A stretch of DNA of 47,008 nt from a virus. A program made the position numbers and the translations under genes. Numbering within the stretch: the stretch's first letter is position 1; each line of letters starts with the position of its first letter. The notes under the pieces were generated by a model. It was not told the DNA's origin and searched no databases. It saw nothing but the letters and a program-made list of their open reading frames with translations. Positions 2,193-46,192 of this stretch are shown piece after piece. Location: UHGV virus genome UHGV-1362026, one strand, 5' to 3'.

Positions 2193-2236
2193 AATCTACA
2201 CCACAAAATAATCACTGTCAACACCTGTGATATAAT
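2193..2236. promoter_or_regulatory. divergent promoter module, copy 1
   Basis: Minus strand: TTGACA (rc of 2216-2221), 17-nt spacer, TAGATT (rc of 2193-2198), pointing left. Plus strand: extended -10 TGaTATAAT (2228-2236) about 36 nt before the ATG at 2273. A near-identical module recurs at 3587-3635. Confidence 0.55.
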
Positions 2237-2272
2237 CATCGCGTTAGCAGCTAACACAATTCGGAGATCGAA

Positions 2273-2989
2273 ATGGCTATTTGTGCAAATGATAAAGGCG
2301 TTCTTGTCGGTCGCATGACCCGCCTGTTCCTTGCTGAAGGGTGCGGTGACGCAGTTCCGTCAGCAGAAGACTGGAAATATTTAGGCTCAACCACCAGTAA
2401 AGGCGTGGACTACTCGCCGCAGACTACCACCTCGGAGGCAGACACCACTGGCGGCTTCGTTTCCACTCTCGTTACCAGTTCTGATATGACCATCAGCGCA
2501 GAGGTTGAAATCCGCAAGAATGACCCGAGCGATGAATTTGGCTTCCATCGTCTGGTTGAGATTTACGCCACTGAACTGAAGGCGCGTCGCCAGCCTTCCT
2601 TGTGGGTGCGTCAGGTGACTGGTGCAACTATCGTTACCGCGTACTGCAACATCACCAGCATCAGCTACGAAGGCGGCACGAATGACATCGTTACTGGTAG
2701 CCTTGAGTTCAAGGTTTACGATTCTGACAGTGTCACCGTTGAAAGCCTTGAGCCTCTGGCATTCACTACAGACTTGCCATCAACTGGCACTGCTGGCAGC
2801 CCGTTAACTGTTGCTGTTGAAGGTGGCGTCGCTCCTTACACTTATGTATGGCGCAAAGATGGCGCGGTAGTTAGTGGTGAATCCGGTGCAACACTGTCAA
2901 GCCCTACCGCTGGTGTGTATACCGTCACGGTAACTGATTCGTCTACCGACCCGGAAATTATCATCAGCACGGCTTGCACCGTATCCTGA
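2273..2989 (+). CDS. major tail protein with C-terminal Ig-like (Big_2-type) domain
   Basis: 238 aa; C-terminal LPSTGTAGSPLTVAVEGGVAPYTYVWRKDGA is typical of Ig-like domains on lambda gpV-type tail tube proteins; lies between neck and chaperone/TMP genes; own promoter and strong terminator. Confidence 0.75.
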   Translation: MAICANDKGVLVGRMTRLFLAEGCGDAVPSAEDWKYLGSTTSKGVDYSPQTTTSEADTTGGFVSTLVTSSDMTISAEVEIRKNDPSDEFGFHRLVEIYATELKARRQPSLWVRQVTGATIVTAYCNITSISYEGGTNDIVTGSLEFKVYDSDSVTVESLEPLAFTTDLPSTGTAGSPLTVAVEGGVAPYTYVWRKDGAVVSGESGATLSSPTAGVYTVTVTDSSTDPEIIISTACTVS

Positions 2990-2992
2990 TAA

Positions 2993-3024
2993 AGAAAAAG
3001 CCCCGAAAGGGGCTTTGTTTTATT
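2993..3024. terminator. bidirectional rho-independent terminator
   Basis: aaagaaaaaGCCCCgaaaGGGGCtttgttttatt, with A-run upstream and T-run downstream. Confidence 0.8.
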
Positions 3025-3220
3025 CTTGTGGCGGTTCTGGTGGATTGGCCCAGTGGGTAGCTGGAATGCCGTGACAGCGGTCTAATTCACCAACAAAAAT
3101 CTTACTGCCAATGTTGTCGATAACTTTACATACCGCAGTTCTAACGACACCACGAAATGCTGTGATAACCATCTCGCCTTCTTCAGGCATCCTATCACTA
3201 CACTTAATCCACTGGCTCAT
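3020..3220 (-). CDS. DUF551-like small protein (antisense moron inside the tail module)
   Basis: 66 aa; MSQWIKCSDRMPEEGE...ATHWANPPEPP matches the DUF551 pattern (WISVxDRLPE ... THWMPLPEPP); AAGGTGA RBS. Confidence 0.55.
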   Translation of the reverse strand: MSQWIKCSDRMPEEGEMVITAFRGVVRTAVCKVIDNIGSKIFVGELDRCHGIPATHWANPPEPPQE

Positions 3221-3356
3221 ATCACCTTATCCTCATCAAAAATCACACCAATCACACGAAGCAGGTCTTTTGCCATACGCTCTGCTTCTTCGTAGTCGTA
3301 ACCTGCATCGACATACAAATCTATGTAGAAAATCAGGTCAGCTTTTGTTTGTTCGT

Positions 3357-3551
3357 TCATTTCTTGTCGCCACTTTTAACCAATGCCCAGACAAGTGCTG
3401 CAACCCACCCAATAAAACTCCATCCGACAAGAATATTCAGCACACAGATTGCTGTCGTGTTTGTGTGCTTTCTTTGCAAAGCCACAAATGATGGAAGAAG
3501 ATAAGCAAATATCACCAATCCGGCGAAAAACAACAAAATAACAACATCCAT
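3357..3551 (-). CDS. small two-TM membrane protein, superinfection-immunity (Imm)-like
   Basis: 64 aa, two hydrophobic helices, LVGWSFIGWVAALVWAL motif recalling the Imm_superinfect family; GAGGTGA RBS; own TTGACA-17-TAGATT promoter. Confidence 0.5.
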   Translation of the reverse strand: MDVVILLFFAGLVIFAYLLPSFVALQRKHTNTTAICVLNILVGWSFIGWVAALVWALVKSGDKK

Positions 3552-3586
3552 AACTCACCTCATTAATATCTCGTTTCGATGACTTG

Positions 3587-3635
3587 AATCTACATCACCA
3601 CTTCGCAGGTGTCAACACCACTGAGATGATATAAT
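3587..3635. promoter_or_regulatory. divergent promoter module, copy 2
   Basis: Minus strand: TTGACA (rc 3610-3615), 17 nt, TAGATT (rc 3587-3592), driving the Imm-like gene. Plus strand: extended -10 TGaTATAAT (3627-3635) before the chaperone/TMP genes. Shares AATCTACA(T)CACCAC, TGTCAACACC and GATATAATCA blocks with copy 1. Confidence 0.55.
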
Positions 3636-3663
3636 CAACATCAGTCAAATTCAGGATGCAAAC

Positions 3664-4371
3664 ATGAGCAGTCGCACGCCACTAACAGAAATCGGAGAGA
3701 TGCGCATCTCTCTTTCCGACAGGAGTTTTTTCTTTAAGCCATCATTCCGCGCAATGAATGAAATCGGCACACCAAAAGAAATCGTCGAGGTGTATGCCAG
3801 ACTCAATGGCATTGATTATGTTGCGCCGTTGCAGCACGTCGAATGCCTGCCATTTGGCGCGCAGATGCAGGTTATGAAAACCATCAGCAAACCTGTTTAT
3901 GGTCGCCACGTACTGAGCGCAGCCTATATCGTCATGCAGTCATGCTGTGAGGATGATATTTCTGTGCTGATTGGCGGATGGAAGCCAACACCGCGTGGTG
4001 TGCGATACGTACCTGGCATTATGCCAGTGAGCGACATTATTATTATTGCTCGCAATCTGATGCAGCACGGCATCATTGGCAAGTCGCCACTCAAAGTACC
4101 TGAGCGTCTGGAAGAGCAAGGCAAGAAAACCACAAACGAATTTCATGCGTCGCAATACATCATCTCAGCACGCACGCACTTCGATATGACGCGCGATGAG
4201 GCAGAAAACCTGTCCATGACAGAGTTTCAGATGATGATTAAGAATAAATATCCAGAGCCGAAAGGGTTAACGAAAGAAGAGCGCGCGGCAGAGTACGATC
4301 AGGCTAAAGCAGACCGTGAGCGCATGAAGGCACTGGCTGAACGCAAAGCGAAAAAAGCGAGGAATACATAA
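3664..4371 (+). CDS. putative tail assembly chaperone (between major tail protein and tape measure)
   Basis: 235-aa ORF immediately upstream of the TMP with a TAATG overlap; position equivalent to lambda G/GT; no convincing -1 slippery extension found. Confidence 0.5.
   Translation: MSSRTPLTEIGEMRISLSDRSFFFKPSFRAMNEIGTPKEIVEVYARLNGIDYVAPLQHVECLPFGAQMQVMKTISKPVYGRHVLSAAYIVMQSCCEDDISVLIGGWKPTPRGVRYVPGIMPVSDIIIIARNLMQHGIIGKSPLKVPERLEEQGKKTTNEFHASQYIISARTHFDMTRDEAENLSMTEFQMMIKNKYPEPKGLTKEERAAEYDQAKADRERMKALAERKAKKARNT

Positions 4372-7182: not shown

Positions 7183-7186
<4 letters not shown>
6710..7186 (+). CDS. minor tail protein (lambda gpM-like)
   Basis: 158 aa; TAATG overlap with the TMP; pattern ...SLTWIFTLAEERAFIQWLRSP... 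resembles gpM (...VTLSVPREEATVLESFLEEHGG). Confidence 0.6.
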
Positions 7187-11184
<3,998 letters not shown>

Positions 11185-11223
11185 TACAATATACATCAAA
11201 TTCACAAAGGAGCATTTATTATA

Positions 11224-15747: not shown

Positions 15748-15776
15748 CTCACCATTTATCGTTAATTGAATCTACA

Positions 15777-16217
15777 TCAATCTACATCTGAAAGCAAGCC
15801 AAAATACGCCAACACTGCAATCTTTATCTGGTCGAGTCCACACGCCACCGCAGAGAATGCACCAGCGTTGGCGCTATCATTGAGAAACGGTATCTGTCCG
15901 GGTTGCCATTTGCTAAGCGTTGAATCATGGCGCTTCAACTCTATCGTCGCTTTATGCCACATCACTCCAGGCGTCAGGATTATCACATCAGACACCCCTG
16001 ACCTGACACCTTTCCTTGCGCGCGATGCCAGATGCTGCACTGAGTTGCTTTTGGTCTCCTGAGACGGATGGAACCACAGCACATCAGGAAACCGGTAATC
16101 CATCCACCACTTGAACGCTATCAGGTCTGAATCCTCAAGCGGGCAATCGCCGCGGTAGCTATCATCAAACACAAAAACATTATCACTCAGTTCATGCTGC
16201 TTGAATCGCTTTTTCAT
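15777..16217 (-). CDS. VRR-NUC domain nuclease
   Basis: GVRSGVSDVIILTPG...ATIELKR matches the VRR-NUC signature (G..G.PD..., ElK); ATG at 16217 with AGGAGA RBS; overlaps the helicase 3' end by 26 nt. Confidence 0.65.
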   Translation of the reverse strand: MKKRFKQHELSDNVFVFDDSYRGDCPLEDSDLIAFKWWMDYRFPDVLWFHPSQETKSNSVQHLASRARKGVRSGVSDVIILTPGVMWHKATIELKRHDSTLSKWQPGQIPFLNDSANAGAFSAVACGLDQIKIAVLAYFGLLSDVD

Positions 16218-18126
16218 TATTCTCTCCTGTAAAATCTTTTCTGTGGATGATGTCTCGGCCTTTATCATTAATGCGATGCGTGATGCGTTTTGGCGCTTTA
16301 ATCAATCCCGCATACATCATGAATTGTTTGGCGTTCTGGCATTTCAGGATTTTCCCTGCCATTGACTTATCATCAAGGTGAGGGAAGATAGCCTTTGCCT
16401 TGAACATGTTTTTCATGTGAGTTGCTCCGCCATAAGGGTAGAAAACTTCGTTAGCCCACCCCTCCTTGCCATCACAACGATTAATCCAGTAGCGATACAA
16501 AATACCTTCTCCGTCCTTCGTTAACTGAACCTTGAAATCCATAACATCAGCCCATTCGTTGTCGGTATACGCACGCTCATTCAATGCCGCATTCGGGTCG
16601 CGCAAAACGTGATCGCAATGTCGGCAATAGCGAGCTGTCGGGTCGTTTTTAGTACCACATCCATCATCAAAAATACGGATGCCATGCTTATCGAAACCAC
16701 AACGGATATAACTGAAAAACTCTTCGCAACGACCATCTGGCGACAATGCATCTTTGCCAATACAGCGGCGCGCATATGGGCTGTTCATTGTTCCGCATTT
16801 AGGACACGGAACTTGTTCACCACTTCGTTTTGAACGTTGCGCTTCAGCTTCTTCCAGAATTGGGTCTTCATATAGCTGACCAAGCTCAAACATCGTGCCT
16901 GAGAAATCAAGAACCAGATGGTCTTCTTTATGATACCCGGCGTCAATTTGCTCTTTCTTTAGCAGGCGCATTCCGCGACCAAGCAACTGAACAAGAAGAG
17001 TGAGTGACATTATTTTTCGCAATATGCAGCTCGTATCCCATAACGGTATATTTACGCCAGTGGTAAGGGCGGCTATCTGGAATGTGAATTTTTTGCGCCC
17101 GGTGTATGCATCTTTTAGAGCTTTCCTTCTGGCTTTTGACCCCATATCTTCTGTGACTATTGAATAACTTCCTTCAGGCAAATATTTTGCCGCCTCCTGA
17201 CAATGCTTCTTACCAGCACATGTAATTAGCACTCCGTTCCTGTTTTTAGTCAATTCCATAACCTTAAGCATGATTTTCTGCGTCAACGTACCTTGCTCAA
17301 GAATTTCTTTCTGCATCTGCTTGAGCTGCTCGGCGGTAAAGTCCTGAGTACCATCAACATCTGAACCATGAAAATCTGAAAGGTCATAATGCAGACTATC
17401 AACATCATGAAGACCAAAAATTGTTGGCACAAGAAAACCGTTTTCAACCATGTACTTGGTGTCTATGTTGATAATCTCTTTCTTCCAGAAAGCTCCTTTT
17501 ATTGATGTAGTTCCGCGAAACGGTGAGCCTGTATAACCTATTATTCTCAACTCATGGCCGTGCTTATCTTTGCACCTTTTCATTAGCTCATTAATTATCA
17601 CTGCATACTGCGTATCACCATCATTAACAACATCAATGTCATTAACCATATGATTTTCATCGATCAGCAGGAATCTTGGGTAAAAGTCAGAAAGCGCACC
17701 TTTTGCAATAACATTCCCTGACTCATCCTTTTTATCAAACAAAGCATTTACAACAGTACCCTCAGAACCACAGATTATTGGGTACGTAGAACTTTTCCTA
17801 CCCAACGAAGCACTGAATAGCGAGTTTCTAACACCAAGCGACCATAGTTCTTCCGCATCTTGCTCCACTATTTCGCCCTGTCTTGATAAAATCATCCCTG
17901 AATAGCCCATTTCCTGAAAACGCTTTGCTATCATGGCAATCATCAGTGACTTTCCGCTACCGACGCTTGCTGTTACATAACTCGGGCCAACATAATGACG
18001 AATCACCTCACCAGTTAACTTATATATCAACCACTGGTAGGGTCTTGGCTCGATATCACCAGTATCCAGGCAGGATTTCAGCAAGTTAATGTCAATCTTT
18101 GAAATCATTTTGTCTATTTTATGCAT
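16192..18126 (-). CDS. SF2 (DExH) DNA helicase with C-terminal zinc-ribbon
   Basis: 644 aa; Walker A VGSGKSLMIA, DExH box LIDENH, C-terminal CPKCG...CRHCDH. Confidence 0.8.
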   Translation of the reverse strand: MHKIDKMISKIDINLLKSCLDTGDIEPRPYQWLIYKLTGEVIRHYVGPSYVTASVGSGKSLMIAMIAKRFQEMGYSGMILSRQGEIVEQDAEELWSLGVRNSLFSASLGRKSSTYPIICGSEGTVVNALFDKKDESGNVIAKGALSDFYPRFLLIDENHMVNDIDVVNDGDTQYAVIINELMKRCKDKHGHELRIIGYTGSPFRGTTSIKGAFWKKEIINIDTKYMVENGFLVPTIFGLHDVDSLHYDLSDFHGSDVDGTQDFTAEQLKQMQKEILEQGTLTQKIMLKVMELTKNRNGVLITCAGKKHCQEAAKYLPEGSYSIVTEDMGSKARRKALKDAYTGRKKFTFQIAALTTGVNIPLWDTSCILRKIMSLTLLVQLLGRGMRLLKKEQIDAGYHKEDHLVLDFSGTMFELGQLYEDPILEEAEAQRSKRSGEQVPCPKCGTMNSPYARRCIGKDALSPDGRCEEFFSYIRCGFDKHGIRIFDDGCGTKNDPTARYCRHCDHVLRDPNAALNERAYTDNEWADVMDFKVQLTKDGEGILYRYWINRCDGKEGWANEVFYPYGGATHMKNMFKAKAIFPHLDDKSMAGKILKCQNAKQFMMYAGLIKAPKRITHRINDKGRDIIHRKDFTGENNEKAIQAA

Positions 18127-18716
18127 TATTTTACCCTACCAAATTCACCATTAAGAACTGATGATGCTTTTGCATACGCTTTATGTGCATCTTCAGGTGT
18201 ATTAAAATAACCAATAACTTTCTTCTTGCCTCTAACCCAAATCTGAGCAACCCATTTCTTCTCCCTTGAGAACCAGCTAACACCTTTATATCCGCTAGTG
18301 TTATTTGATGACAAACCTTTATTCCATTTGTTTTGACTGCAATCAGCCAGCCTGAGGTTTTCTATCCTGTTATCGTTCTTAATAGTATTAATATGATCTA
18401 TATCCATAAGTCCAGGGTCTTGCTGTTTGCATATAGCCCACACAATTCTATGTGCTTTATAATAAACGCCATCAATCATCACTAGCCTGTAATTCATCTT
18501 ATCAACCTTGTTATCAGCAGGCTTGCCCAGATACCGTGCATTCCATGTTTTGTGATGTGGTGTTAATTCCTCTCTCTTTTTCCAATATAGGCGTCCATTG
18601 ATGACCTCTAACCTTGATGTCACGTAATCAACATCAATCTTTAGCACCTTTCTTTTTTTCTCTAAAACTTTTGAGTCGGCATCCTGAGCAACAGAACTCA
18701 GCTCTTGCTGTTCCAT
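18126..18716 (-). CDS. HNH homing endonuclease with AP2 domain (second copy)
   Basis: IDHINTIKNDNRIENLRLADCSQN and SGYKGVSWFSREKKWVAQI...IGYF; TAATG overlap with the helicase start. Confidence 0.8.
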   Translation of the reverse strand: MEQQELSSVAQDADSKVLEKKRKVLKIDVDYVTSRLEVINGRLYWKKREELTPHHKTWNARYLGKPADNKVDKMNYRLVMIDGVYYKAHRIVWAICKQQDPGLMDIDHINTIKNDNRIENLRLADCSQNKWNKGLSSNNTSGYKGVSWFSREKKWVAQIWVRGKKKVIGYFNTPEDAHKAYAKASSVLNGEFGRVK

Positions 18717-18836
18717 AGAATTCTCTCCCGCAGTTTTTGCACTTTTTCATAGTGATCGCCATTTCTTGTCCTCGATATTAAACTCAGTTGCGTTTCAAGT
18801 CAATAACGCTTGTGCGTTTCATGCGAGTAAATTACA

Positions 18837-19823
18837 ATGATTCTACATCATCGTCAACAGGAAGATTTTGTGAGATACGACTGGAAAGACATTGAGCCAA
18901 AAATGCTTGGCAACTGGCAGGCCGCCATCATGTCTATCGTCAATGTGGATAGCAGAGTTTTCAATGGCAAGCACCAGCCATGCCCGTCATGCTCAGGAAA
19001 AGACAGGTATCGCTTTGATGATAACTTCGAAACAAAAGGCGATGGCGGAGCAATCTGCAATCAGTGCGGTTCCGGTAGCGGCATGAACTGGCTGATGAAA
19101 CTCTCCGGCATGAGCTTTCCTGAAGCACTGGAGGCGCTGGGAGGATTCCTGAACATGCACCCACGCGAAAAGCTGGAGGCAATCAGGAAGGAGTTACCGA
19201 AGATAAATTACAACGATGACTTCATCACCGAACAGGAAGTCGCCGCAATCATGGCTAAAACAACGCGTGTCGCAATGAATGAGTGGACTTTGATAAATGG
19301 TATTGGTTGCGACATTAACGTCGTCAGAGGTAAATCTGGGGAGCTTATTGCTGTTGAACTGATGCGTGCTGACACAATGAAGCCGTGCAACGTGGCATTC
19401 ATTGGCATGGATGATTATTCATTCAGAACGTTTTTCCGTGCTGGATACGACAAAGACTCAGCTATCAACGGAAAGCTCACGCGCGGAGCGATAAGCCCAA
19501 TCGGAGAAGACAACGGAAAGTTCATTTACCTGGTATCTGATTATGCCGATGCGTGGAAGTGCCATTACTTCACTGGCGCTCATGTCTGGTGCTGCTGGTC
19601 GCCGGAAAATATGTGGGAAGTGGTGCGTTCTGTTAGCGATGAGACGAAAGCACGGTTACGCTGCATAGTTAATTATAAATTTGACGAACTTTGCGCTGCG
19701 GAAAACGCAGGACTACCGGTGATGCTGCCTGATGATGCTGACACAATCAGGATGGCAAAGAGAATCAGGAGAAAAATTTATGACGCTGGCGAGTTGATAG
19801 GTAAAATGTCAGTAAGCAGATAA
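18837..19823 (+). CDS. DNA primase (T7 gp4-type zinc-binding domain plus TOPRIM region)
   Basis: CPSCSGKDRYRFDD...CNQCGSGSG resembles the Prim_Zn_ribbon motif; start uncertain (ATG 18837, GTG 18870 with AGGAAG RBS, or ATG 18903). Confidence 0.7.
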   Translation: MILHHRQQEDFVRYDWKDIEPKMLGNWQAAIMSIVNVDSRVFNGKHQPCPSCSGKDRYRFDDNFETKGDGGAICNQCGSGSGMNWLMKLSGMSFPEALEALGGFLNMHPREKLEAIRKELPKINYNDDFITEQEVAAIMAKTTRVAMNEWTLINGIGCDINVVRGKSGELIAVELMRADTMKPCNVAFIGMDDYSFRTFFRAGYDKDSAINGKLTRGAISPIGEDNGKFIYLVSDYADAWKCHYFTGAHVWCCWSPENMWEVVRSVSDETKARLRCIVNYKFDELCAAENAGLPVMLPDDADTIRMAKRIRRKIYDAGELIGKMSVSR

Positions 19824-19825
19824 AA

Positions 19826-19856
19826 GAAACCCTCCGATTGGAGGGTTTTTGTTATT
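19826..19856. terminator. bidirectional rho-independent terminator
   Basis: aaACCCTCCgattGGAGGGTttttgtt. Confidence 0.75.
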
Positions 19857-21984: not shown

Positions 21985-22292
21985 GTAACGTGGGTAAAGC
22001 GTGGGGCAACCAACCTTCCCCACGAAGTTTCACTCTAAGTATATGTAATATAATATAATTATTATTATTTGGGTTAATGGGTAATATTATTATTCATATT
22101 ATAGATAGTAATTAACATAATATTAACAAATGGATTATTTGAATATATTTATAAGGGGATGGGTATGAAATCTGCCCCTTTTTACCCACGAAAAATAAAA
22201 ACATCAAAATCAATAATTTACGATAAAAAACGTGGGGCAACCAACCTTCCCCACGACCTGCCCCACGGGCAAAAATTTACCCCACGAGCACG
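21985..22292. repeat. iteron-like repeat cluster flanking an AT-rich core: candidate replication origin / divergent control region
   Basis: Identical 26-mer CGTGGGGCAACCAACCTTCCCCACGA at 22000-22025 and 22231-22256 (itself a 7-bp inverted repeat). At least 8 CGTGGG/CCCACG units and several GGGTAA/GGGTTAA units. AT-rich core (~85% AT) at 22030-22160. Confidence 0.5.
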
Positions 22293-22309
22293 TTTTTAAC
22301 GAGTTGCTG

Positions 22310-22338
22310 TTGACGTAGAATCACAACTGATGTAGATT
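22310..22338 (+). promoter_or_regulatory. sigma70-type early promoter TTGACG-17-TAGATT (rightward)
   Basis: TTGACG 22310-22315, 17-nt spacer, TAGATT 22333-22338; built from two copies of the 12-mer TTGA(C/T)GTAGA(A/T)T; about 30 nt upstream of the ATG at 22370. Confidence 0.55.
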
Positions 22339-22369
22339 GAATGCATCAACAACGAATGAGGTAGTGAGG

Positions 22370-26814: not shown

Positions 26815-26843
26815 CTTGACCAATCTACACCGAGCGCATAGTA
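26815..26843 (+). promoter_or_regulatory. candidate sigma70 promoter TTGACC-17-TAGTAT for the cassette downstream of TerL
   Basis: TTGACC 26815-26820, 17-nt spacer containing AATCTACACC, TAGTAT 26838-26843; a second motif copy ATCTACATCA at 26845-26854. Confidence 0.4.
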
Positions 26844-26874
26844 TATCTACATCAGGATTACCGGAGATATCACT

Positions 26875-27084
26875 ATGCGCAGCTATGCAGGATTCACACA
26901 GGAGGAAAAAGAACAGGTTTATTCGCTGGCGCGGGCTGGCGTGCCTGATGATGTGATTTGCCGTCGGTATGACATCGACAAGGATTTTCTGCTGCGCGTT
27001 ATTGATGATGTTTTCGTTAACCTGCAAGAGAAGCGCGGGTACAAGGGTATCTGCTGCAAGAATGATTTTTTGAGGGGTGAGTGA
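26875..27084 (+). CDS. hypothetical small protein
   Basis: 69-aa ORF; GGAG upstream; first gene of the cassette. Confidence 0.5.
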   Translation: MRSYAGFTQEEKEQVYSLARAGVPDDVICRRYDIDKDFLLRVIDDVFVNLQEKRGYKGICCKNDFLRGE

Positions 27085-29840: not shown

Positions 29841-30771
29841 CGCCAGACTTCCACAACCGCGCATATCGCAGAGTCTTACGGACCCGTTAGGCGCTGCGAC
29901 TCGCCTGTCGAAAATGGATAAGGTGATAACGCGCAAATACAAACAACTCAGGACTCGTGCGATTGAGTTGTTTCGCGCCATTCCGAGCAGTCATACCAAC
30001 GCAGAATCAAGTGGTCTGTATTTCTACGATTTCAGCAGTGCACGCGCTGCGACATTTATGGATGAGTTGCAGGCGCTGATTGACGAGATTCTGCTTGAAG
30101 GTGACGATTTCGGACACGACAGGATGTGGGCCAATGTATTCATCGGTGATGCGTATCAGGCCGGAACGCAGAAGGCAAACTCAGAACTATCAAGCCTGTC
30201 TCCTGTTTATGCTGAACAGCGACCGATTGCTGCGATACTCTACAGTGAGCCTTATCTGAATCGACTGCAACTGGCTTATACGCAAGGATACTCAGACTGG
30301 CGCGGACTGAGTGATTATTCCAGGCAACAACTTGCATCTGTCATTATGGAAGGAATTGCCCGTGGCGCTAACCCTCGTGATGTTGAATCTGACATCATTA
30401 AGCGCGTCGATGTGTCTCACAGCTACGCGAAACAGATAGCGCAGACAGAAATCACTGGAACACTGCGGCAGGCTAACAGGCGGGAAGTCATTGAGGCGCG
30501 CGAGGAATTAGGTATTGAGACGGTGATGCTGTGGCAATCAGCATTGATGCGCACAACACGCCAGACGCACGCGGAGAGACACGGACGGTTTTATACGCCA
30601 GAGGAGATTGACACGTTCTATAGTGAGGGAGCAAACCGCAGGAACTGCCACTGCGCACAGACTCCGGCTTTGTTAATGGATGGTAAGCCGGTAATCCTTG
30701 AATCTTCACAGGAAAGACTTGATAAGCAGCGTGAAGCGTGGCAATCAGCCAACAAAAAGCCCTCTAAGTGA
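29815..30771 (+). CDS. head morphogenesis protein (Mu F / SPP1 gp7-like)
   Basis: Conserved C-terminal block ...[20 protein letters not shown]...NCHCAQT (H-x-NC(R/H)C); start uncertain (ATG 29815/29821 inside the portal 3' end). Confidence 0.7.
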
Positions 30772-30786
30772 GGGCTTGGTTTTATC
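30756..30786 (+). terminator. rho-independent terminator
   Basis: GCCCTCtaagtGAGGGCttggtttta; the stop codon lies in the loop. Confidence 0.75.
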
Positions 30787-32476: not shown

Positions 32477-32507
32477 CTTCATCACCTCATTCACCGTTTG
32501 ATGTAGA

Positions 32508-32554
32508 TACTATGCACTACCACTCAATCTACGTCAACCTCATTGTGATAGAAT
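32508..32554. promoter_or_regulatory. divergent control region with an inverted pair of the 12-mer and an extended -10
   Basis: TTGATGTAGATA (32508-32519) and AATCTACGTCAA (32527-32538); TGaTAGAAT extended -10 at 32546-32554, 27 nt upstream of the ATG at 32581. Confidence 0.45.
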
Positions 32555-34158: not shown

Positions 34159-34180
34159 AAAGCCCCGTGATGGGGCTTTA
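34159..34180. terminator. rho-independent terminator (convergent lysis unit / leftward block)
   Basis: aaaaaAGCCCCgtgatGGGGCTtta; the U-tract is on the minus strand. Confidence 0.7.
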
Positions 34181-34183: not shown

Positions 34184-34438
34184 TCAACCAATAACCATCC
34201 AGTCGCTTGCGTTCATATCGGTTTGACTTGCCAGCCATGGCACCAGCTTACCGTCAGCCGTTTTCATGCAGATAAAAGGTAGCGTATCAAGCCCGTCAAC
34301 CCCATCAATGTCGCACTCAAAATCCCATGCTCCTCCTGCTATCATGAATAGGAACATACCCTTTCCATTCCACCCATTTCTTGCTACCTTGCATCCAATG
34401 CCCATCTCATTTAAGGCCTCACCAAAGCTTAAAGGCAT
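34184..34438 (-). CDS. DUF2829-like small protein
   Basis: MPLSFGEALNEMGIGCKVARNGWNGKGMF...DGKLVPW...SDWMV fits the DUF2829 pattern; AGGTG RBS before ATG 34438. Confidence 0.5.
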   Translation of the reverse strand: MPLSFGEALNEMGIGCKVARNGWNGKGMFLFMIAGGAWDFECDIDGVDGLDTLPFICMKTADGKLVPWLASQTDMNASDWMVIG

Positions 34439-34447
34439 TTTCACACC

Positions 34448-34594: not shown

Positions 34595-34904
34595 CAACAG
34601 ATTCCTCTATTTGTTTGGGTTCCTTTTCCACTTTCGATGTGAATTTAGCTACATTGCCATCAACGCGATGCTCAACTCGAACGTTATAGCCATCAACCGC
34701 GGTGAATGCCAGGCCTCCATCCTCCCCAGTGCAACTCACCATCTCAAGGTCTATAGCTTTTGCCGGGATGCGGAATTTCACCCCTCCAGATTCAATCGTA
34801 ATATCAGGAGCCACCAGGTAAGGATGACCATCACGTTCAAATACTACGTCGCTACCCGCATCGCTAATCAGCACACTGGCTGGTGATAGTTTTTCAATTT
34901 TCAT
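34566..34904 (-). CDS. hypothetical protein
   Basis: ATG 34904 (MKIEKL...) with GGAGGA RBS; 112 aa. Confidence 0.5.
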   Translation of the reverse strand: MKIEKLSPASVLISDAGSDVVFERDGHPYLVAPDITIESGGVKFRIPAKAIDLEMVSCTGEDGGLAFTAVDGYNVRVEHRVDGNVAKFTSKVEKEPKQIEESVDEPATLPAE

Positions 34905-36240: not shown

Positions 36241-36284
36241 TTGACGAATCTACGTCACTTAGTCAATACTTATTGACGTAGATT
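36241..36284. promoter_or_regulatory. divergent control region with three copies of the 12-mer element
   Basis: TTGACG (36241-36246) followed by AATCTACGTCA (36247-36257), then TTGACGTAGATT (36273-36284); sits between leftward and rightward operons. Confidence 0.45.
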
Positions 36285-36312
36285 GTACCACAACGAAAGA
36301 GGTGATGTGGAA

Positions 36313-36765: not shown

Positions 36766-37010
36766 CAGTGCCATATATGCCGATGATGAATGAGCACGGA
36801 TTGCTAGAGTGTGATAATTGCGGTGGCTTAAGGGTTGTTCCTTGCGCAGTACCTCACGGATGGATTATTGAATGCCTTGATTGTGGCAAGAAAAGTGAAG
36901 AATACGTCAGATTACGTAGCGCAAGGGGAAGATGGAACACCCGCAACGGACACCTATACACAGCGGAAGATTTCAACCAGGCGACACAGGAGCGTGATTA
37001 TGGATTATAA
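36762..37010 (+). CDS. Lar-family restriction alleviation-like zinc-finger protein
   Basis: LECDNCGGLRVVPCAVPHGWIIECLDCGKKS (CxxC ... CxxC) resembles the Lar_restr_allev family; ATGA overlap. Confidence 0.5.
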   Translation: MTVPYMPMMNEHGLLECDNCGGLRVVPCAVPHGWIIECLDCGKKSEEYVRLRSARGRWNTRNGHLYTAEDFNQATQERDYGL

Positions 37011-37488
37011 ATCACAAATTATGCGCGTGATTATCAATCATCCCGGAGCAACGCGTGCATATATTGAAAAGCATTGCGGCGGTAAGCATTCAAGCACCAC
37101 AACGCATCGTCTGCATGAGATGCTTGCGCTTGGTTTCATTCGCCGCGAGAAGTCAGTGATTCGCGGCGGAAAGTGGCAGTATAAATACTTTATCTCTGAT
37201 GATACTGCGGGCATTGATGATGCGATTAAGTGCCATTTGCTTGATAACTCTGGTGCGGAAGTGAAAGAAATCAGCTCAGCGACTGGCATTGATTATCGCA
37301 TCGTGACAAGCCGCATTCGCATTATGCTTCATAACGGTGATGTGACGCGAAGCTATGACCACCACAAGAAGCTATGGCGTTACTCATGGCGTGAGCAGGA
37401 GGTTAACGTCAGCAACCTGTTCAATTCACTGCTTCGCAATGTAAGAGGTCATCATGGGGAAAGCCAAACGCAAGAAGCAAGAGTATGA
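37000..37488 (+). CDS. tandem winged-helix DNA-binding protein (putative transcription or replication regulator)
   Basis: 162 aa; two wHTH-like repeats (IEKHCGGKHSSTTTHRLHEMLALGFIRRE and VKEISSATGIDYRIVTSRIRIMLHNGDVTRS). Confidence 0.45.
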   Translation: MDYKSQIMRVIINHPGATRAYIEKHCGGKHSSTTTHRLHEMLALGFIRREKSVIRGGKWQYKYFISDDTAGIDDAIKCHLLDNSGAEVKEISSATGIDYRIVTSRIRIMLHNGDVTRSYDHHKKLWRYSWREQEVNVSNLFNSLLRNVRGHHGESQTQEARV

Positions 37489-37721: not shown

Positions 37722-37991
37722 ATGACGAGTAGAGAGCAGTTCGAATTATGGGTTAGCGGAACGACTAATTCTGATTTTCACAGAAGCATCATGTTGTGTC
37801 GCCATGAAAATGGAAATTATAACCACCTTGAAACAAATCATAAGTGGGAAGCATGGCAGGCATCGCGCGCAGCAATTGAGATTGAGCTTCCTAATCAATT
37901 TCCCGGAGAGTATTACCTCGACAGAGATGTAATTTACGCAGATGAGCTTATTGAAGAACTCGAACAAGCAGGCCTAAAGGTGAAAAAATGA
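37722..37991 (+). CDS. hypothetical protein
   Basis: ATG 37722 with GAGGAAG RBS inside ORF 37614..37991. Confidence 0.45.
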   Translation: MTSREQFELWVSGTTNSDFHRSIMLCRHENGNYNHLETNHKWEAWQASRAAIEIELPNQFPGEYYLDRDVIYADELIEELEQAGLKVKK

Positions 37992-38314
37992 TTATCCAAT
38001 TAAACGACATTATGAAAGCAGACATCATTCAGCTTGAAGATTATGACGTGCAACTGGCATTTGAAATCGAAACCGTTGAGCGTCAACTTCAATATGCGGA
38101 TAAGAAGAATGACCGAGTCTGGCATGAGAAAGCACTTAAGGCACGCGACCACATGAAGCGCACGCGAGCACTTATTAAAACGCGGCTTGATAAGCTATAT
38201 TACGGCGAGGAAAGGATGATTCACGGAGCAATTCTGGCGCAAATCCGCAAGGAGATGCCAATTGGCAAATTCATGTCATACGTACACCGCGCAAAACAGG
38301 AGGCCGGTTTATGA
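37988..38314 (+). CDS. hypothetical protein
   Basis: 108 aa; ATGA overlap. Confidence 0.55.
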   Translation: MIIQLNDIMKADIIQLEDYDVQLAFEIETVERQLQYADKKNDRVWHEKALKARDHMKRTRALIKTRLDKLYYGEERMIHGAILAQIRKEMPIGKFMSYVHRAKQEAGL

Positions 38315-40531: not shown

Positions 40532-40533
40532 TA

Positions 40534-41604: not shown

Positions 41605-41632
41605 TAAAAAAGGGGCGAAAGCCCCTTTGTAA
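41605..41632 (+). terminator. rho-independent terminator after the capsid gene
   Basis: aaaaaAGGGGCgaaaGCCCCTttgt. Confidence 0.75.
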
Positions 41633-42258: not shown

Positions 42259-42267
42259 GGGGGTTCT

Positions 42268-43086
42268 ATGGCTATCAGGTACGAAATAAACACAACTCCG
42301 GCTGATGGAGAGGTTTTGCTTAGCGAAACCATGTCAGCAGACTGGTCAGCACTGCAGGTACAGATTGTGCCGCTAAATTCCTCCGGTGGCTATGAGCCAT
42401 TAACAAGCGGGGCTGTTTCCGTAATGGTATCGCCGTTTGCGTCTGGTGATTTCTGGATTGACGTCAACAATAATAATTATTATGGCGTGGCGCTGCGACT
42501 GAAGGTGATTAAGTCACAAATACCAGCTGGCATTGCATCCCTGAAAGTCCTGGTATGGCGATCTGCCACATCAGTACCATCAAGTCAGGTTGTCGCGCAG
42601 TCCTATGCAGAGTTTGCTAACAAGCAAGGGAAGTTATTCACCGCATCGCGTCGCGTGACTGACGTTGCTGGCGGAGCTAACCTTGACAGCATTTTTATTA
42701 CCGGCTCAAAACAGGTCGTTTTTAATCAACGCATCATCGGCTACACCGGTAAGGGTGTCGTAGCGTCAATCTACCGTGGAGCTGTAGCCACTGGCGGCAC
42801 TGCTGCGGAGATTAATAACCCAAATGACATAGCGTCGCATACTGCAACGGCGCAGCTTCTGACTGGCTCTACGATCACAAGTATTGGGCAGCTGACGGTA
42901 GCAGCAACATACAGTGAGGGCAACGCATCGAATCAGGGTCAGGGTAACTCGCAGGCGAAACTCGGCGAGCAGATTATCATGGCACCAAATACGACGTATT
43001 TGCTTCGCATAACATCACTGGATACTGCGGTGCAGAATATCAATGCGTATGTCTCGTGGTTTGAGGATGATACTTATCTGGCGTGA
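42268..43086 (+). CDS. hypothetical (probably virion-associated) protein flanked by terminators
   Basis: 272 aa from ATG 42268; Ser/Thr/Gly/Ala/Gln-rich, beta-rich; stand-alone transcription unit. Confidence 0.45.
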   Translation: MAIRYEINTTPADGEVLLSETMSADWSALQVQIVPLNSSGGYEPLTSGAVSVMVSPFASGDFWIDVNNNNYYGVALRLKVIKSQIPAGIASLKVLVWRSATSVPSSQVVAQSYAEFANKQGKLFTASRRVTDVAGGANLDSIFITGSKQVVFNQRIIGYTGKGVVASIYRGAVATGGTAAEINNPNDIASHTATAQLLTGSTITSIGQLTVAATYSEGNASNQGQGNSQAKLGEQIIMAPNTTYLLRITSLDTAVQNINAYVSWFEDDTYLA

Positions 43087-43088
43087 TA

Positions 43089-43122
43089 AAAGAAAAGCCC
43101 CGTAAAGGGGCTTTGGTTTACT
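43089..43122. terminator. bidirectional rho-independent terminator
   Basis: aaagaaaaGCCCCgtaaaGGGGCtttggtttact. Confidence 0.8.
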
Positions 43123-43399
43123 GTCTGGAAATTAGCTTTTCACGCAGTAAAGATATTGCGTTATGCATGACTTGAACATGATAAAGTTCGCGGTCTTCAT
43201 ATGCCAGCTTGCTGCTACCAACCGATGTTGTTACAGATGTTATTATCTTACCCCTCATTATATCAATTAATTCAAGTAACTCCCTTTCATCTCCGGAGCG
43301 AAGAATAATACTTACCAACTTTTCGTATTCATTATTATGTTCATCGACGCCGCTTTGCTTAACTCCGCAAAGCCTGCATGGCTTCATCTCTGCACTCAT
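43118..43399 (-). CDS. hypothetical protein (CxxC-containing)
   Basis: 93 aa, last gene of the leftward accessory operon; ATGA overlap. Confidence 0.5.
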   Translation of the reverse strand: MSAEMKPCRLCGVKQSGVDEHNNEYEKLVSIILRSGDERELLELIDIMRGKIITSVTTSVGSSKLAYEDRELYHVQVMHNAISLLREKLISRQ

Positions 43400-43938
43400 T
43401 AATCAATCCTCATCGGCATAACAACAATTTTCGCAGTCTCACCAGTTGGCGAACTAAGGCAGCAAACTGCGGCATTTGTGTTTCCATTCAGCTCAAACTT
43501 AACGCCACAGAATTTAGGATTAAACAGCTTCGCAGCTTTCTCGATATCAACCAGATAGCCAGCATTGAAGCCAATTTCCTCTGCTGCTTTCGTTTCTTTT
43601 GGTATCACGCGGTCAATGTCAGGGAATCGACCATCAATCTCTTCGCAGATACCAGCGCCAACCATCACGCCAGCTTCATCATGATACGTTGCAATTTTCG
43701 TTTTGGTATCAATAATGGCGTAGTCATAGCGTTTTGTTTGAGATTTGCCAATCTTGATAATCACATTTTCTGTCAGCTTATTGTCATGGCTGCCGCCAAT
43801 AAATGCGCGATGACCGTCAGTTGATGCAATGCGACCATCAGGCATAAAGCAGATGCCATTCAGGTAGTAGCGCACATCATTGCGCGCCTGAAATATTAAT
43901 GCTGATTCAAGTAATAATTTGCTGATTTTTAGTTTCAT
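43399..43938 (-). CDS. truncated beta sliding-clamp (DnaN)-like protein (~180 aa)
   Basis: NDVRYYLNG...TDGHR matches E. coli DnaN 'DVRYYLNGMLFETEGEELRTVATDGHR'; IDGRFPDIDRVIPK vs VDGRFPDYRRVLPK; EIGFNAGYLVDI vs EIGFNVSYVLDV; C-terminal KIVVMPMRID vs AAYVVMPMRL; ATG 43938 with a TGATG overlap. Confidence 0.6.
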   Translation of the reverse strand: MKLKISKLLLESALIFQARNDVRYYLNGICFMPDGRIASTDGHRAFIGGSHDNKLTENVIIKIGKSQTKRYDYAIIDTKTKIATYHDEAGVMVGAGICEEIDGRFPDIDRVIPKETKAAEEIGFNAGYLVDIEKAAKLFNPKFCGVKFELNGNTNAAVCCLSSPTGETAKIVVMPMRID

Positions 43939-44111
43939 CACTTCACCTTAATCATGTGCTGTTTTGCAACCTTCAGGCATTCTTCAAAAATGCCACCCTT
44001 CTTTGCGCTCTGATTGCGCTTGTAATACTGAATTGCCGCATCAATTGCCATCTGGTCGATTTCAGGCAGCTTGGTTCGAAGTTGTTTTTCGATGAATTGT
44101 TCGGCGTTCAT
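43938..44111 (-). CDS. hypothetical small protein (57 aa)
   Basis: TGATG overlaps at both ends; below the track cutoff. Confidence 0.4.
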   Translation of the reverse strand: MNAEQFIEKQLRTKLPEIDQMAIDAAIQYYKRNQSAKKGGIFEECLKVAKQHMIKVK

Positions 44112-44920
44112 CACATCTTCTCCAGAATTGCCATAACCTCGTGAATGTCAGCGACAGGAATCTGGATAAATTCCTCATCCTCTGCCACCACATGACCAGC
44201 AGGGAGAATCACATGGTCTGCTGGCTTCAATAACTCAATCAGGCGGTCTACTGGCTTAATCTTTTTCGACTTCAGCACTTTGGCTGTGACCTTGTCTTTG
44301 CCTTGTGCTTTAGCTTCTTCAACTGCCTCGTCGATAACTTTAACCGCGTCATCGCCATGCTCACGAGTTACTGCTACGGCATTTGCATAGCTTATTTGCC
44401 CGGCGCTGATTCGCGCTTTTACTTCCGCTGGCACATCACCCAGCGACAGGTGCATCTGCACGTCAGATACTGAACGCCCTACCTTCCTGGCGATTTCTTC
44501 ATTCGTCCAGCCAAAACCTTTCAGTCGCGTGTAAGCCTTTGCACGCTCAAACGGGTCAAGCTGCTTACCCTGGCTGGATGACACCATGAAGGCGATTTTA
44601 TCTGCTTCGTCTCCTGTAAAATCCTTACACTCAATGCGAACGATTGGTGCGCCACGCTCAATGGCACGCAATGCGCCGAGATAGCGATGCTGACCATCAA
44701 GAATGCGCATTCCCTTCTCGTCTGGAATAACTGTTAATGCTGGCAATGGCTGACCTGATTCCCAGCACTGTGCGAAATACTCCACATGCTGCTCATCTGC
44801 CTCACGGATGTTGTATCCCGGCTCCAGATAGATTTGCTCAACTGGCACGAGATAGGTTTTGTTAACAGCGATTCCGTTGCGCGTTTCTTTGTCTGAATAG
44901 ATTTTGCTGAGTGTTTTCAT
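44111..44920 (-). CDS. ParB-like nuclease domain protein
   Basis: ILDGQHRY... motif (ParB/Srx fold, DGxHR) in the N-terminal half; 269 aa. Confidence 0.7.
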   Translation of the reverse strand: MKTLSKIYSDKETRNGIAVNKTYLVPVEQIYLEPGYNIREADEQHVEYFAQCWESGQPLPALTVIPDEKGMRILDGQHRYLGALRAIERGAPIVRIECKDFTGDEADKIAFMVSSSQGKQLDPFERAKAYTRLKGFGWTNEEIARKVGRSVSDVQMHLSLGDVPAEVKARISAGQISYANAVAVTREHGDDAVKVIDEAVEEAKAQGKDKVTAKVLKSKKIKPVDRLIELLKPADHVILPAGHVVAEDEEFIQIPVADIHEVMAILEKM

Positions 44921-45297
44921 TGTTTCTTTCCTAATGCTTTCTTGATTGCTTTGTTTGCCAGATTTAATGGGTGGTCATCATGGCAATCATCCGACGATAC
45001 TGCGCAAACATCCTCAACGTAATCGCGAAGCTGGCGAAGTGCTTCGAGCAATTCTGGCGCTGCGGCTACTAACTTTGCATTCGACAAATGCTCAATGCGT
45101 GATACATCCCTATGAGCGCCTTCATCGCTCCAGTGTTCAAACCCAGCCTTCTCCCAGCCAGGGATAATTGCTATAGAATTAATCACCCTAATGATCACAA
45201 ATCCATTATCATCAACTACATCAGTATAAACTTCATGGCGCTTAACGCACTTCCACTCACCTTTCGTACCCTTGAATTCATCTTTCATATCATTCAC
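44917..45297 (-). CDS. Ead/Ea22-like C-terminal domain protein
   Basis: ...NAKLVAAAPELLEALRQL... motif typical of the Ea22-like family. Confidence 0.4.
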   Translation of the reverse strand: MNDMKDEFKGTKGEWKCVKRHEVYTDVVDDNGFVIIRVINSIAIIPGWEKAGFEHWSDEGAHRDVSRIEHLSNAKLVAAAPELLEALRQLRDYVEDVCAVSSDDCHDDHPLNLANKAIKKALGKKQ

Positions 45298-45481
45298 CGC
45301 TTTCCTCTAATAAAAGTTCATAGTTTGCAATGTACGCATTAGCCAGATAATATATTTGCTCTGCGGCACAACGCTCTGGCACGCTGAAGTCATCAATAGA
45401 ACCAGCATTGCTGAGTGCATCAACACAATTTCTGAAATCAGCCATAGTATTGCGGAACATACAGTATGACATGTTTGCCAT
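45290..45481 (-). CDS. hypothetical small protein
   Basis: 63-aa ORF in an operon. Confidence 0.45.
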   Translation of the reverse strand: MANMSYCMFRNTMADFRNCVDALSNAGSIDDFSVPERCAAEQIYYLANAYIANYELLLEESGE

Positions 45482-45483
45482 AA

Positions 45484-46107
45484 TTACTCCTCATCACCAG
45501 AATTAGCAATATCGTAAAACTGACCGTAGGTTATCTGCTTAAAGTTATCAGGTATCTCTACCTGCCCGTGACCTTCATCTTTTGTATTTGGTACAGCAAA
45601 AATCAGGAAATCATCCCTTTGCGGGTGTTTGCCGCCATAAGTAGACAGCATTGCAAAACCAAATCCGCGACCAGATCGCTCACCAATGCCTGTGCGCGCA
45701 ATTCCATAATGATTAACGATGTAGTCTTTCCATTCTGGCAATAACTTTAATTTCTCGTTTGCCTCGCGCATCACTGCGTCCAGCTTTTTGTTGTATTCGC
45801 GACCATCCTTTGTGTTTCCTTTCCCGCGAGCCACAATTACACGCTGACCTCCCCAGAACTCTTCGCGCTTTATTGTCACTTGGCACGGAAATTCAAACTG
45901 ATTACTCCACACAAAACTCTCAAGCAGGCCTCCGCCAACAGCACCCCAACTGCGCGTTGTGGTAAATGCGATAGCGCCAACCTTTTTCATTGCATCACCG
46001 AGAATTTCATTGCGGCGCTTTTGGATGTCATCATATGCGTCAATAACTTTCTTAACATCAGCACCTTCAACCATGTAATAATCATAATGTTTTGCGTTAC
46101 TGCTCAT
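45484..46107 (-). CDS. hypothetical protein (first gene of the leftward accessory operon)
   Basis: 207 aa; GAGGTG RBS; downstream of a TTGACG-17-TATAGT promoter. Confidence 0.55.
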   Translation of the reverse strand: MSSNAKHYDYYMVEGADVKKVIDAYDDIQKRRNEILGDAMKKVGAIAFTTTRSWGAVGGGLLESFVWSNQFEFPCQVTIKREEFWGGQRVIVARGKGNTKDGREYNKKLDAVMREANEKLKLLPEWKDYIVNHYGIARTGIGERSGRGFGFAMLSTYGGKHPQRDDFLIFAVPNTKDEGHGQVEIPDNFKQITYGQFYDIANSGDEE

Positions 46108-46146
46108 TTCATCACCTCTAACATTTATTGTTGTTTCTACGTCATT

Positions 46147-46192
46147 ACTATAAACACCCTCTCAATCTACGTCAACAGGAATATGCTAAAAT
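46147..46192. promoter_or_regulatory. divergent promoter pair with two copies of the TCTACGTCA element
   Basis: Minus strand: TTGACG (rc 46170-46175), 17 nt, TATAGT (rc 46147-46152) driving gene 45484-46107. Plus strand: extended -10 TGcTAAAAT (46184-46192) before the ATG at 46223. Confidence 0.55.

Follow-up and report, generated by a model that had tools for sequence, protein, structure and literature searches.

The viral genome UHGV-1362026, considered here as a stretch of 47,008 bases (referred to in its entirety as the window), is, in essence, the whole genome of a virulent siphophage that is small and belongs to the Skatevirus cluster. Its control regions contain repeated copies of a short motif of 12-14 bp, the distribution, conservation and putative role of which in early transcription are the subject of the present analysis. 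At the nucleotide level, the window is some 88-91% identical to phages IME207, C1, Bas77-80, Skate, swi2 and E1, with KpV2811 and DP01 being more distant Klebsiella relatives. In the BASEL paper, these scattered genera are treated as a single Skatevirus group, rooted by Roufvirus. The gene map relied upon here was generated by transferring IME207 proteins to the window, together with a check of open reading frames (ORFs) and ribosome-binding sites. Control regions were aligned across five genomes, namely, those of the window, IME207, swi2, E1 and DP01, with one further alignment of the 32498-32554 region involving seven genomes. Two genes encoding HNH endonucleases are found on the minus strand (7183-7674 and 18126-18716). 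All control regions at which the coding strand switches carry the motif, except for one made by an inserted HNH gene. Specifically, the gene at 7183-7674 produces the sole divergent intergenic region (7675-7852) devoid of the motif, as would fit a recent insertion.

The exact 12-mer TTGAYGTAGATW appears five times in the window, as compared to an expectation of 0.06, and 35 times when up to two mismatches are allowed (13.1 expected). In a count that drew on no annotation, TGACGTAGA was the most strongly over-represented 9-mer of the entire genome (six copies vs. 0.17 expected). The same 9-mer also ranked first in Klebsiella phage DP01 (eight copies vs. 0.21 expected). When hexamers were ranked by intergenic enrichment, GTAGAT came out on top, with 12 of its 18 copies falling within non-coding DNA, which represents only ~8% of the genome. 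Likewise, all six copies of TGACGTAG are intergenic, with none being found in coding DNA. Alignment of 15 copies yielded the consensus nTGAYGTAGATT(S)(A), in which positions G3, G6, T7, A8, G9 and A10 are invariant. The consensus, in its longer form nTGAYGTAGATTSA, presents no dyad symmetry and is not self-complementary.

A 14-column matrix trained exclusively on DP01 was next applied to the window, with 100 shuffles serving as background. This revealed 15 sites scoring at least 12 bits, where 1.45 were expected (maximum of six in 100 shuffles). All 13 sites scoring at least 13 bits are non-coding, with the copy at 15777-15790 extending into the gene upstream solely over its stop codon. A first-pass annotation of this DNA had described a repeated phage element found solely between genes. 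The existence of such an element is borne out by both the 12-mer count and the matrix scan, and its intergenic restriction holds for the strong copies, while copies with two mismatches are also found inside coding DNA, at chance level. A scan of IMG/VR for the exact 14-mer returned relatives mixed with chance single matches and was uninformative.

To assign the copies to promoters, scans for sigma70-like hexamers were combined with the alignments, with the scores given below being those of the DP01-trained matrix. Nine sigma70-like sites matching at 9 or more of 12 positions contain or abut the motif, namely, 2221-2193, 3615-3587, 22310-22338, 26816-26844, 32537-32509, 36241-36270, 36266-36237, 36311-36282 and 46175-46147 (leftward promoters are given in descending order). 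Overlaying the coordinates showed ~12 of 15 copies to overlap or abut the best of the sigma70-like sites and, as in sigma70 core promoters, the -35 and -10 hexamers at the motif copies lie 16-18 bp apart, upstream of a gene. The distance from the motif to the start codon is 27-36 nucleotides (nt) for six of the copies. Most early promoters hold two copies, spaced 10-30 bp apart and variably oriented relative to transcription.

Four positions within the predicted promoters can be distinguished. TTGACG is employed as the -35 hexamer at 46175-46147 and 32537-32509 on the minus strand and at 22310-22338 on the plus strand. TAGATT is employed as the -10 hexamer at 3615-3587, 2221-2193 and 15769-15774 on the minus strand and at 22333-22338 on the plus strand. 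Other copies lie in the spacer (26820, 36245, 15777 and 18838) or over the -10 hexamer and the start point (26842, 32498, 36273 and 46132, as well as 18838 in the case of the primase promoter).

At the left end of the window, GTGGTGTAGATTGT (2191-2204, minus strand, 15.3 bits) contributes the -10 hexamer of promoter 2221-2193 (TTGACA-17-TAGATT), which is directed leftward, towards a tRNA-like gene. That gene (1760-1886, minus strand) holds a 69-nt insertion in the region of the anticodon arm, scores 27.3 bits against the Rfam tRNA model (gathering score 29) and gave no ARAGORN match, with one to three intact tRNAs being found at the same position in relatives. The copy GTGATGTAGATTCA (3585-3598, minus strand, 18.1 bits), conserved in the five aligned genomes, similarly serves as the -10 hexamer of the leftward promoter 3615-3587, predicted to drive a superinfection-immunity operon beginning at 3551. 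At 15767-15790 (minus strand), two tandem copies 10 bp apart score 19.4 and 13.2 bits. Here, the downstream copy corresponds to the -10 hexamer (TAGATT, 15769-15774), with the upstream copy occupying the spacer. This promoter, TTGCTT-17-TAGATT, precedes the DUF7448, exonuclease VIII, Erf and SSB genes. Next, ATGATGTAGAATCA (18838-18851, minus strand, 15.2 bits) lies in the spacer of a leftward promoter, TTGACG (18857-18852)-17-TAATTT (18834-18829), and at the same time just 3' of the -10 hexamer (TACAAT, 18833-18838) of the rightward primase promoter.

At 22310-22340 (plus strand, 18.6 and 18.7 bits), two copies in direct orientation, spaced by 17 bp, supply both the -35 hexamer (TTGACG) and the -10 hexamer (TAGATT) of a rightward early promoter for a gene that, based on its ORF and ribosome-binding site, starts at ~22367. 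The upstream copy of this pair is conserved in DP01. Two weaker copies at 26820-26855 (minus strand, 11.2 and 11.7 bits) fall within a rightward TTGACC-17-TAGTAT promoter (26816-26844) upstream of the gene for a 69-residue protein, with one copy abutting the -35 hexamer in the spacer and the other lying over the -10 hexamer and start point. In the lysis control region, an inverted pair is formed by 32498-32511 (plus strand) and 32524-32537 (minus strand), scoring 23.2 and 14.2 bits for the pair. In promoter 32537-32509, which is early and directed leftward, the latter copy provides the -35 hexamer (TTGACG) and the former covers the -10 hexamer and start point, as seen in the promoter scan and the seven-genome alignment. 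A divergent pair, 36245-36258 (minus strand) and 36273-36286 (plus strand), scores 17.6 and 20.3 bits. The first of these copies is found in the shared spacer of two face-to-face promoters, 36241-36270 (plus strand) and 36266-36237 (minus strand). The second lies over the rightward start point, as well as overlapping the -10 hexamer of a leftward extended -10 promoter (TGGTACAAT, 36290-36282). Finally, two direct copies 30 bp apart on the minus strand, 46132-46145 and 46162-46175, score 23.2 and 15.3 bits for the pair. The copy at 46162-46175 is the -35 hexamer of a leftward TTGACG-17-TATAGT promoter (46175-46147), with the copy at 46132-46145 lying over the start point, where a conserved leader begins. 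This 5' leader, TGACGTAGAAACAaCAATAAATGTTAGAGGTGATGAA (46108-46145), is nearly invariant between the window and DP01, with a close copy also present in IME207 and seszw, where it accompanies a further promoter located in the primase region. Moreover, the ribosome-binding-site context GAGGTGATGAAnATG recurs at several early genes.

This map allows the first-pass annotation to be revisited. The coordinates proposed there were right or off by one at 2193, 3587, 15769/15779, 18840, 22310, 22327, 26822, 26844, 32526, 36247, 36273, 46134 and 46164, while the copy placed at 32508-32519 in fact lies at 32498-32509. The sigma70-like pairs described at 22310-22338 and, on the minus strand, at 2221-2193 and 3615-3587 were recovered by the promoter scans. 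By contrast, the spacing of 15-25 bp ascribed to the pairs is not what was measured, and the tandem copies at 15766-15790, described as lacking a promoter-like context, form part of a TTGnnn-17-TAGATT arrangement (15769-15790) conserved in all five aligned genomes.

A second type of promoter is found upstream of the late operons. A regular expression scan of non-coding DNA detected seven extended -10 elements (TGnTAnnAT), all on the plus strand and directly upstream of late operons, at 2228 (major tail protein), 3627 (tape-measure operon), 11182 (tail fibre), 28384 (portal), 32546 (lysis), 38612 (coat) and 46184 (head-tail). The element of the lysis cassette, TGATAGAAT (32546-32554), is conserved in seven genomes. 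No consensus -35 hexamer was seen upstream of those late promoters inspected by eye, suggesting a class that is independent of -35 recognition. A weak motif-like copy, TTGATGTATATTGT (11186-11199, minus strand, 12.2 bits), overlaps the -10 hexamer and start point of the tail-fibre promoter.

The motif is well conserved across the phage group. Comparison with related phage genomes, a check that the first-pass annotation had itself recommended, was conducted with a matrix derived from the window. This identified 13-18 sites scoring at least 13 bits, at syntenic positions, in each of 10 related genomes, where ~1 per genome was expected. In IME207, intergenic DNA as annotated makes up 8.1% of the genome yet holds 15 of 16 sites. 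When syntenic promoters of the window were compared with those of DP01 and KpV2811, the motif was identical and the neighboring spacer bases had diverged. In the 46162 region, for instance, the window, IME207, swi2 and DP01 all share TTGACGTAGATT without change, after which come 11 nt that differ in all four and then TATAG, once again conserved. In the 3587 region, the bases 5' of TGAYGTAGATT vary freely. Where TTGACG is used as the -35 hexamer, TAGATTGA is kept and the ensuing TAGATT(GA) is invariant across genera, with the remainder of the spacer having diverged. Where TAGATT is used as the -10 hexamer, the upstream TGAYG is kept. As such, conservation is not confined to two hexamers separated by a free spacer, with bases outside the hexamers also being invariant across genera. 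The possibility that inverted pairs of the motif form a hairpin in RNA was discarded, given that KpV2811 presents direct repeats at the equivalent promoter.

The motif is thus enriched, restricted to non-coding DNA in its strong copies, conserved across relatives and overlaps promoter-like hexamers. Binding by a protein, repression through such binding and the identity of the binder are proposals drawn from these sequence patterns. The first-pass annotation had taken the motif to be phage-specific, confined to control regions, linked to promoters and something more than a bare hexamer, and this view is upheld by the conservation that extends beyond the hexamer in use and by the copies seen in spacers and at start points, in both orientations. 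The reading favored here, held with about even confidence, is that the motif is a protein-binding operator located in the core of sigma70-type early and middle promoters, through which a trans-acting factor would tune or shut off early transcription. This reading is based on the asymmetric sequence being invariant beyond what sigma70 would need and on there being two copies per promoter, one over the -35 hexamer or spacer and one over the -10 hexamer or start point, in either orientation. Operators of this kind have a precedent in phage P1. The operators of the P1 C1 repressor are asymmetric sites of ~17 bp, dispersed in more than 10 copies that appear singly or in pairs, in either orientation, and that overlap promoters. 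The window motif resembles these dispersed asymmetric phage operators. Nonetheless, P1 is temperate and C1 maintains lysogeny, the sequences are unrelated, and no C1-like protein was recognized in the window.

Were a trans-acting factor to bind the two copies found in most early promoters, it would occlude host RNA polymerase, such that early transcription would be tuned down or turned off, including that of the factor's own operon. Late structural and lysis operons would continue to be read from the separate extended -10 promoters, which have no recognizable -35 hexamer and would not need the motif. At those regions where early and late promoters are arranged back-to-back, their -35 regions overlapping (32498-32554 and 46132-46192), occupancy of the motif would silence the early promoter and could free or help the late promoter through the loss of competing polymerase. 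On conservation grounds, the best candidate for such a factor would be a ParB/KorB-like protein encoded at 44111-44920, followed by the 69-residue protein mentioned above, with a tandem winged-helix-turn-helix protein being unlikely.

The principal alternative is that the motif acts purely in cis, as a composite element of which the sigma70 holoenzyme itself would read TTGACG as -35-like and TAGATT as -10-like, giving rise to overlapping or alternative promoters or, where a sense copy directly follows a start point, to pausing of the lambda PR' type, with no dedicated regulator involved. Indeed, the two halves of the motif match sigma70 hexamers and serve as the -35 or -10 hexamer in at least six promoters. 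Moreover, the start points of 46175-46147 and 36241-36270 hold sense copies, as does that of the promoter in the primase region of IME207 and seszw. At lambda PR', a sigma70-dependent pause is caused by a -35-like hexamer next to a -10-like one where the transcript begins. The window motif also pairs such hexamers at transcript starts, with a sense -10-like hexamer at about +1 to +15, as expected of a pause element, being present at 46132 and, for the rightward promoter, at 36273. By contrast, the copies over the start point or -10 hexamer at 26842, 32498, 18838 and, for the leftward promoter, 36273 are antisense, with the non-template strand offering no TAnnnT. In addition, the copies as a whole are inconsistent in orientation, many lying upstream of the start point or being antisense, and no Q-like antiterminator was recognized. 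We know of no role for sigma70 at the copies located in spacers (26820, 36245, 15777 and 18838), and these, together with the invariance across genera of positions outside the hexamer in use, were counted against a purely cis-acting element. Such an element accordingly appears rather unlikely to account for the motif.

Proteins that could serve as the predicted trans-acting factor were sought by scanning for DNA-binding families, with 40 window proteins being compared to Pfam and 10 to PHROGs. Among these, DNA-binding matches were obtained for only two proteins, namely, the tandem winged-helix-turn-helix and ParB/KorB-like proteins. As putative binders of the motif, the candidates were ranked with the ParB-like protein first, then the 69-residue protein, then a host factor and, lastly, the tandem winged-helix-turn-helix protein.

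The ParB/KorB-like protein (44111-44920, minus strand), which the first-pass annotation had not considered, combines a ParB N-terminal domain, i.e., the CTPase fold, and a helix-turn-helix (HTH) domain in a single replicon-encoded protein. Pfam comparison yielded HTH_ParB with an E-value of 4.6e-11 and the KorB domain with an E-value of 2.9e-5 (24.4 bits vs. a cutoff of 22.3). The Spo0J structure (1vz0) was matched at 2.3e-13 and, over residues 25-225, the structures of Spo0J, ParB, Noc and KorB were all matched. The GxxR box reads GQHR. The protein is 81% identical to its Klebsiella homologue, with the HTH segment GFGWTNEEIA(R/K)KVGRSVSDVQMHLSLGDVP being otherwise unchanged. The gene belongs to the operon behind promoter 46175-46147, itself bearing two copies of the motif, and is retained in seszw_290L (MZ375351.1), a minimal mutant of 36.5 kb from which most of the surrounding operon genes have been deleted. 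In addition, the protein is found in nearly all Salmonella phage records of the group (127 ParB matches vs. 128 for the group marker). No ParA is named in the annotation of relatives and none was matched by Pfam among the 40 proteins scanned. The notion that the motif is a parS partition centromere was rejected, given that no ParA was found and that the sites are asymmetric and dispersed at promoters. A paper on a ParB-dependent thymine dioxygenase concerns ParBs with no DNA-binding domain and proved irrelevant.

The system closest to that proposed is KorB and its operator OB in plasmid RK2. In both instances, a replicon-encoded protein comprising a ParB fold and an HTH domain accompanies a short site present in several copies at or near sigma70 promoters, although binding by the phage protein is only putative. 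Moreover, OB lies directly upstream of the PkorA -35 hexamer and the operon of the regulator itself carries the site. The two nonetheless differ in several respects. Unlike the asymmetric phage motif, OB is a 13-bp palindrome (OA, too, is palindromic). The phage copies are inside the core promoter, whereas KorB is bound beside the core, in most cases, or at some distance from it. KorB acts together with KorA at the -10 hexamer, whereas no KorA-like partner was identified in the phage. Finally, one natural relative of the phage, VLCpiS13a, lacks the ParB-like HTH protein. A more specific version of the operator reading, in which the ParB/KorB-like protein, of chromosomal type and possibly acting as a CTP-gated clamp, is a global repressor of early promoters that loads at asymmetric sites doubling as -35 and -10 hexamers and so switches transcription from -35-dependent early to extended -10 late promoters, is speculative and, on present evidence, improbable.

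Several points weigh against the operator reading and, in particular, against the ParB-like protein as binder. With good -35 and -10 hexamers included in the motif, promoter function alone could account for part of its conservation. In the literature searched, neither transcription start sites nor binding data for this phage group were found. The asymmetry of the motif sets it apart from the palindromic operators normally bound by ParB/KorB HTH dimers. In Klebsiella phage VLCpiS13a, a complete natural genome, the ParB-like gene has shrunk to a remnant (7618-7800) encoding 60 C-terminal residues and lacking the ParB N-terminal domain and HTH, yet all of the motif sites, 15 in number, persist. 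Sites fallen out of use would not yet have decayed in this phage, given how closely it is related to ParB-bearing phages, and their retention shows only that ParB is dispensable there. Likewise, two lambdoid phages, of Erwinia and Klebsiella hosts, encode a 46-47% identical ParB homologue but lack the motif. Since the recognition helices of their ParB homologues differ, this comparison does not discriminate.

The 69-residue protein (26875-27084, plus strand), encoded by the first gene after a promoter with a motif pair, is a possible second candidate, albeit a weak one. The predicted structure comprises three helices (predicted local distance difference test score of 76), with the best fold matches being HTH domains, although these are not significant (E-value of at least 0.26). 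No Pfam match was obtained at an E-value of 0.01 or lower (HTH_Tnp_1 appeared with an E-value of 0.13 for two of six homologues), nor was there any sequence match in the PDB. The protein is found in 206 phage records, the hosts of which are mostly the same as those of this phage group, and in all 10 motif-bearing genomes tested. In Klebsiella relatives, it is 51% identical. The helix that would act in recognition is acidic and shows no conservation. Two other proteins were set aside. For the conserved 108-residue protein (37988-38314), the model is a helical hairpin with no significant fold match. The 272-residue protein (42268-43086, plus strand) belongs to no known family and is deleted in seszw_290L. 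This same protein is the most conserved between the window and DP01 (93%), with its gene being flanked by terminators.

Alternatively, the phage could time its early genes by means of a host protein, whether a transcription factor or a nucleoid protein, that is conserved across Escherichia, Salmonella and Klebsiella and would bind at the motif. Phages from three host genera share an identical motif, whereas their DNA-binding candidates, except for the ParB-like protein, have diverged, and neither that protein nor the tandem winged-helix-turn-helix protein is universal among the genomes checked. These observations would be expected of a host factor. On the other hand, the motif is absent from the two lambdoid phages, the Erwinia and Klebsiella hosts of which are related. 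To our knowledge, no enterobacterial factor recognizes the motif consensus, a point also counted against this explanation. The nearest known site, that of FNR (TTGAT-N4-ATCAA), would place the invariant GTAG in an unread spacer and its right half-site is missed. Reliance on a host factor thus seems improbable.

It was also considered whether the motif could be a late-promoter activator box, bound near -30 by a phage activator in place of the missing -35 hexamer. Middle promoters of phage T4 are built in this manner, with a phage box recognized by MotA near -30 and a good -10 hexamer but no -35 hexamer. The same layout is found at 32524-32554 and 46162-46192, where the motif (32524-32537 and 46162-46175) occupies -35 to -24 of the lysis and head-tail promoters, 10-12 nt from the -10 hexamer, with this spacing being kept in KpV2811 and DP01. 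However, such positioning is seen in only two of the seven late promoters, and in both the same TTGACG is the -35 hexamer of the back-to-back early promoter. In two others (2228 and 3627), the motif lies farther upstream, centered near -44 and -49, with the back-to-back early promoter again being the reason. There, the first-pass annotation had placed the motif ~10 nt upstream of the extended -10 element, as is true of 32526 and 46164, whereas the actual distance is 23-28 nt and the close element is an inverted TTGACA. The remaining three (11182, 28384 and 38612) have no strong copy. In DP01, moreover, the spacing between the leftward -35 hexamer and the tail late promoter differs from that in the window. 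Because TTGACG is shared with early promoters, three of the seven late promoters lack a strong copy and the DP01 spacing differs, the presence of the motif beside extended -10 elements is, judging from promoter layout, best described as a by-product of back-to-back promoter packing and not as a feature of late promoters. Most copies, furthermore, are located on early promoters that have a -35 hexamer, at positions typical of repression, and the 40 proteins scanned gave no match to the MotA or AsiA families. Unlike in T4, then, a box near -30 is not found in every promoter of the class. An activator box is accordingly very unlikely.

The tandem winged-helix-turn-helix protein (37000-37488, plus strand), put forward by the first-pass annotation as the regulator, matches Pfam MarR (7e-5, below the curated cutoff) and the PHROG 'MarR family regulator'. 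In its favor as binder, two such domains per chain could read an asymmetric site of 12-14 bp, and the gene lies in an early operon downstream of a motif pair, yet the proposal is scarcely tenable, given that the protein is but 35-37% identical across Klebsiella relatives (37% in KpV2811), with both putative recognition helices substituted at most positions and the motif unchanged, that its gene is split in IME207, and that the gene is deleted in seszw_290L, which is viable, forms large plaques and retains 18 sites. The pattern expected of a MarR operator, i.e., a conserved regulator with recognition helices that co-vary with the site, is thus not seen. Apart from this protein, seszw_290L also lacks homologues of RusA, SSB, the 272-residue protein and many small early genes, and keeps the genes for the ParB-like, 69-residue, 108-residue and 68-residue proteins. 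A 17-nt deletion in its lysis control region, around position 34789 of that record, removes part of one motif copy.

In the course of this analysis, several additional features of the window were noted. The region spanning 21985-22300 is a probable replication origin, as it contains an iteron-like inverted repeat, GTGGGGCAACCAACCTTCCCCACGA, at 22001-22024 and 22231-22254, with further copies of CCCCACG at 22261 and 22280. These repeats flank a very AT-rich stretch (~22040-22160) beside the helicase gene. The repeat is also annotated in the E1 GenBank record, and the repeats listed there are these origin-like CCCCACG sequences, an element distinct from the motif. In a leftward early operon, 34184-34444 (minus strand) is predicted to encode a protein with a Tad2-like domain (Thoeris anti-defence 2; Pfam E-value of 1.5e-23). 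Finally, GC-rich hairpins of the AAAGCCCC...GGGGCTTT type, with runs of T on both strands, are found at or near the boundaries of gene clusters (2997-3016, 34159-34179, 41609-41628, 43094-43114, 19825-19850 and 30757-30777) and resemble bidirectional intrinsic terminators.

A search of the literature on Guernseyvirinae, phage E1 and Skatevirus retrieved no description of promoters or of the motif, and querying the literature with the sequence of the motif itself matched only unrelated primers. The motif appears to be an operator and promoter motif specific to this phage group. Skatevirus-cluster phages are common candidates for therapy and biocontrol directed against Salmonella, E. coli and Klebsiella, and one of these, seszw, serves as a chassis for genome minimization. 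The map presented here, in which some nine early promoters share the putative operator, seven late promoters are of the extended -10 type and three candidate regulators are open to ranking, could serve rational promoter engineering in such phages. Should the ParB-like protein indeed prove to be the binder, then transcriptional control in the style of KorB would no longer be confined to plasmids but would take in lytic phages, as well as asymmetric sites.

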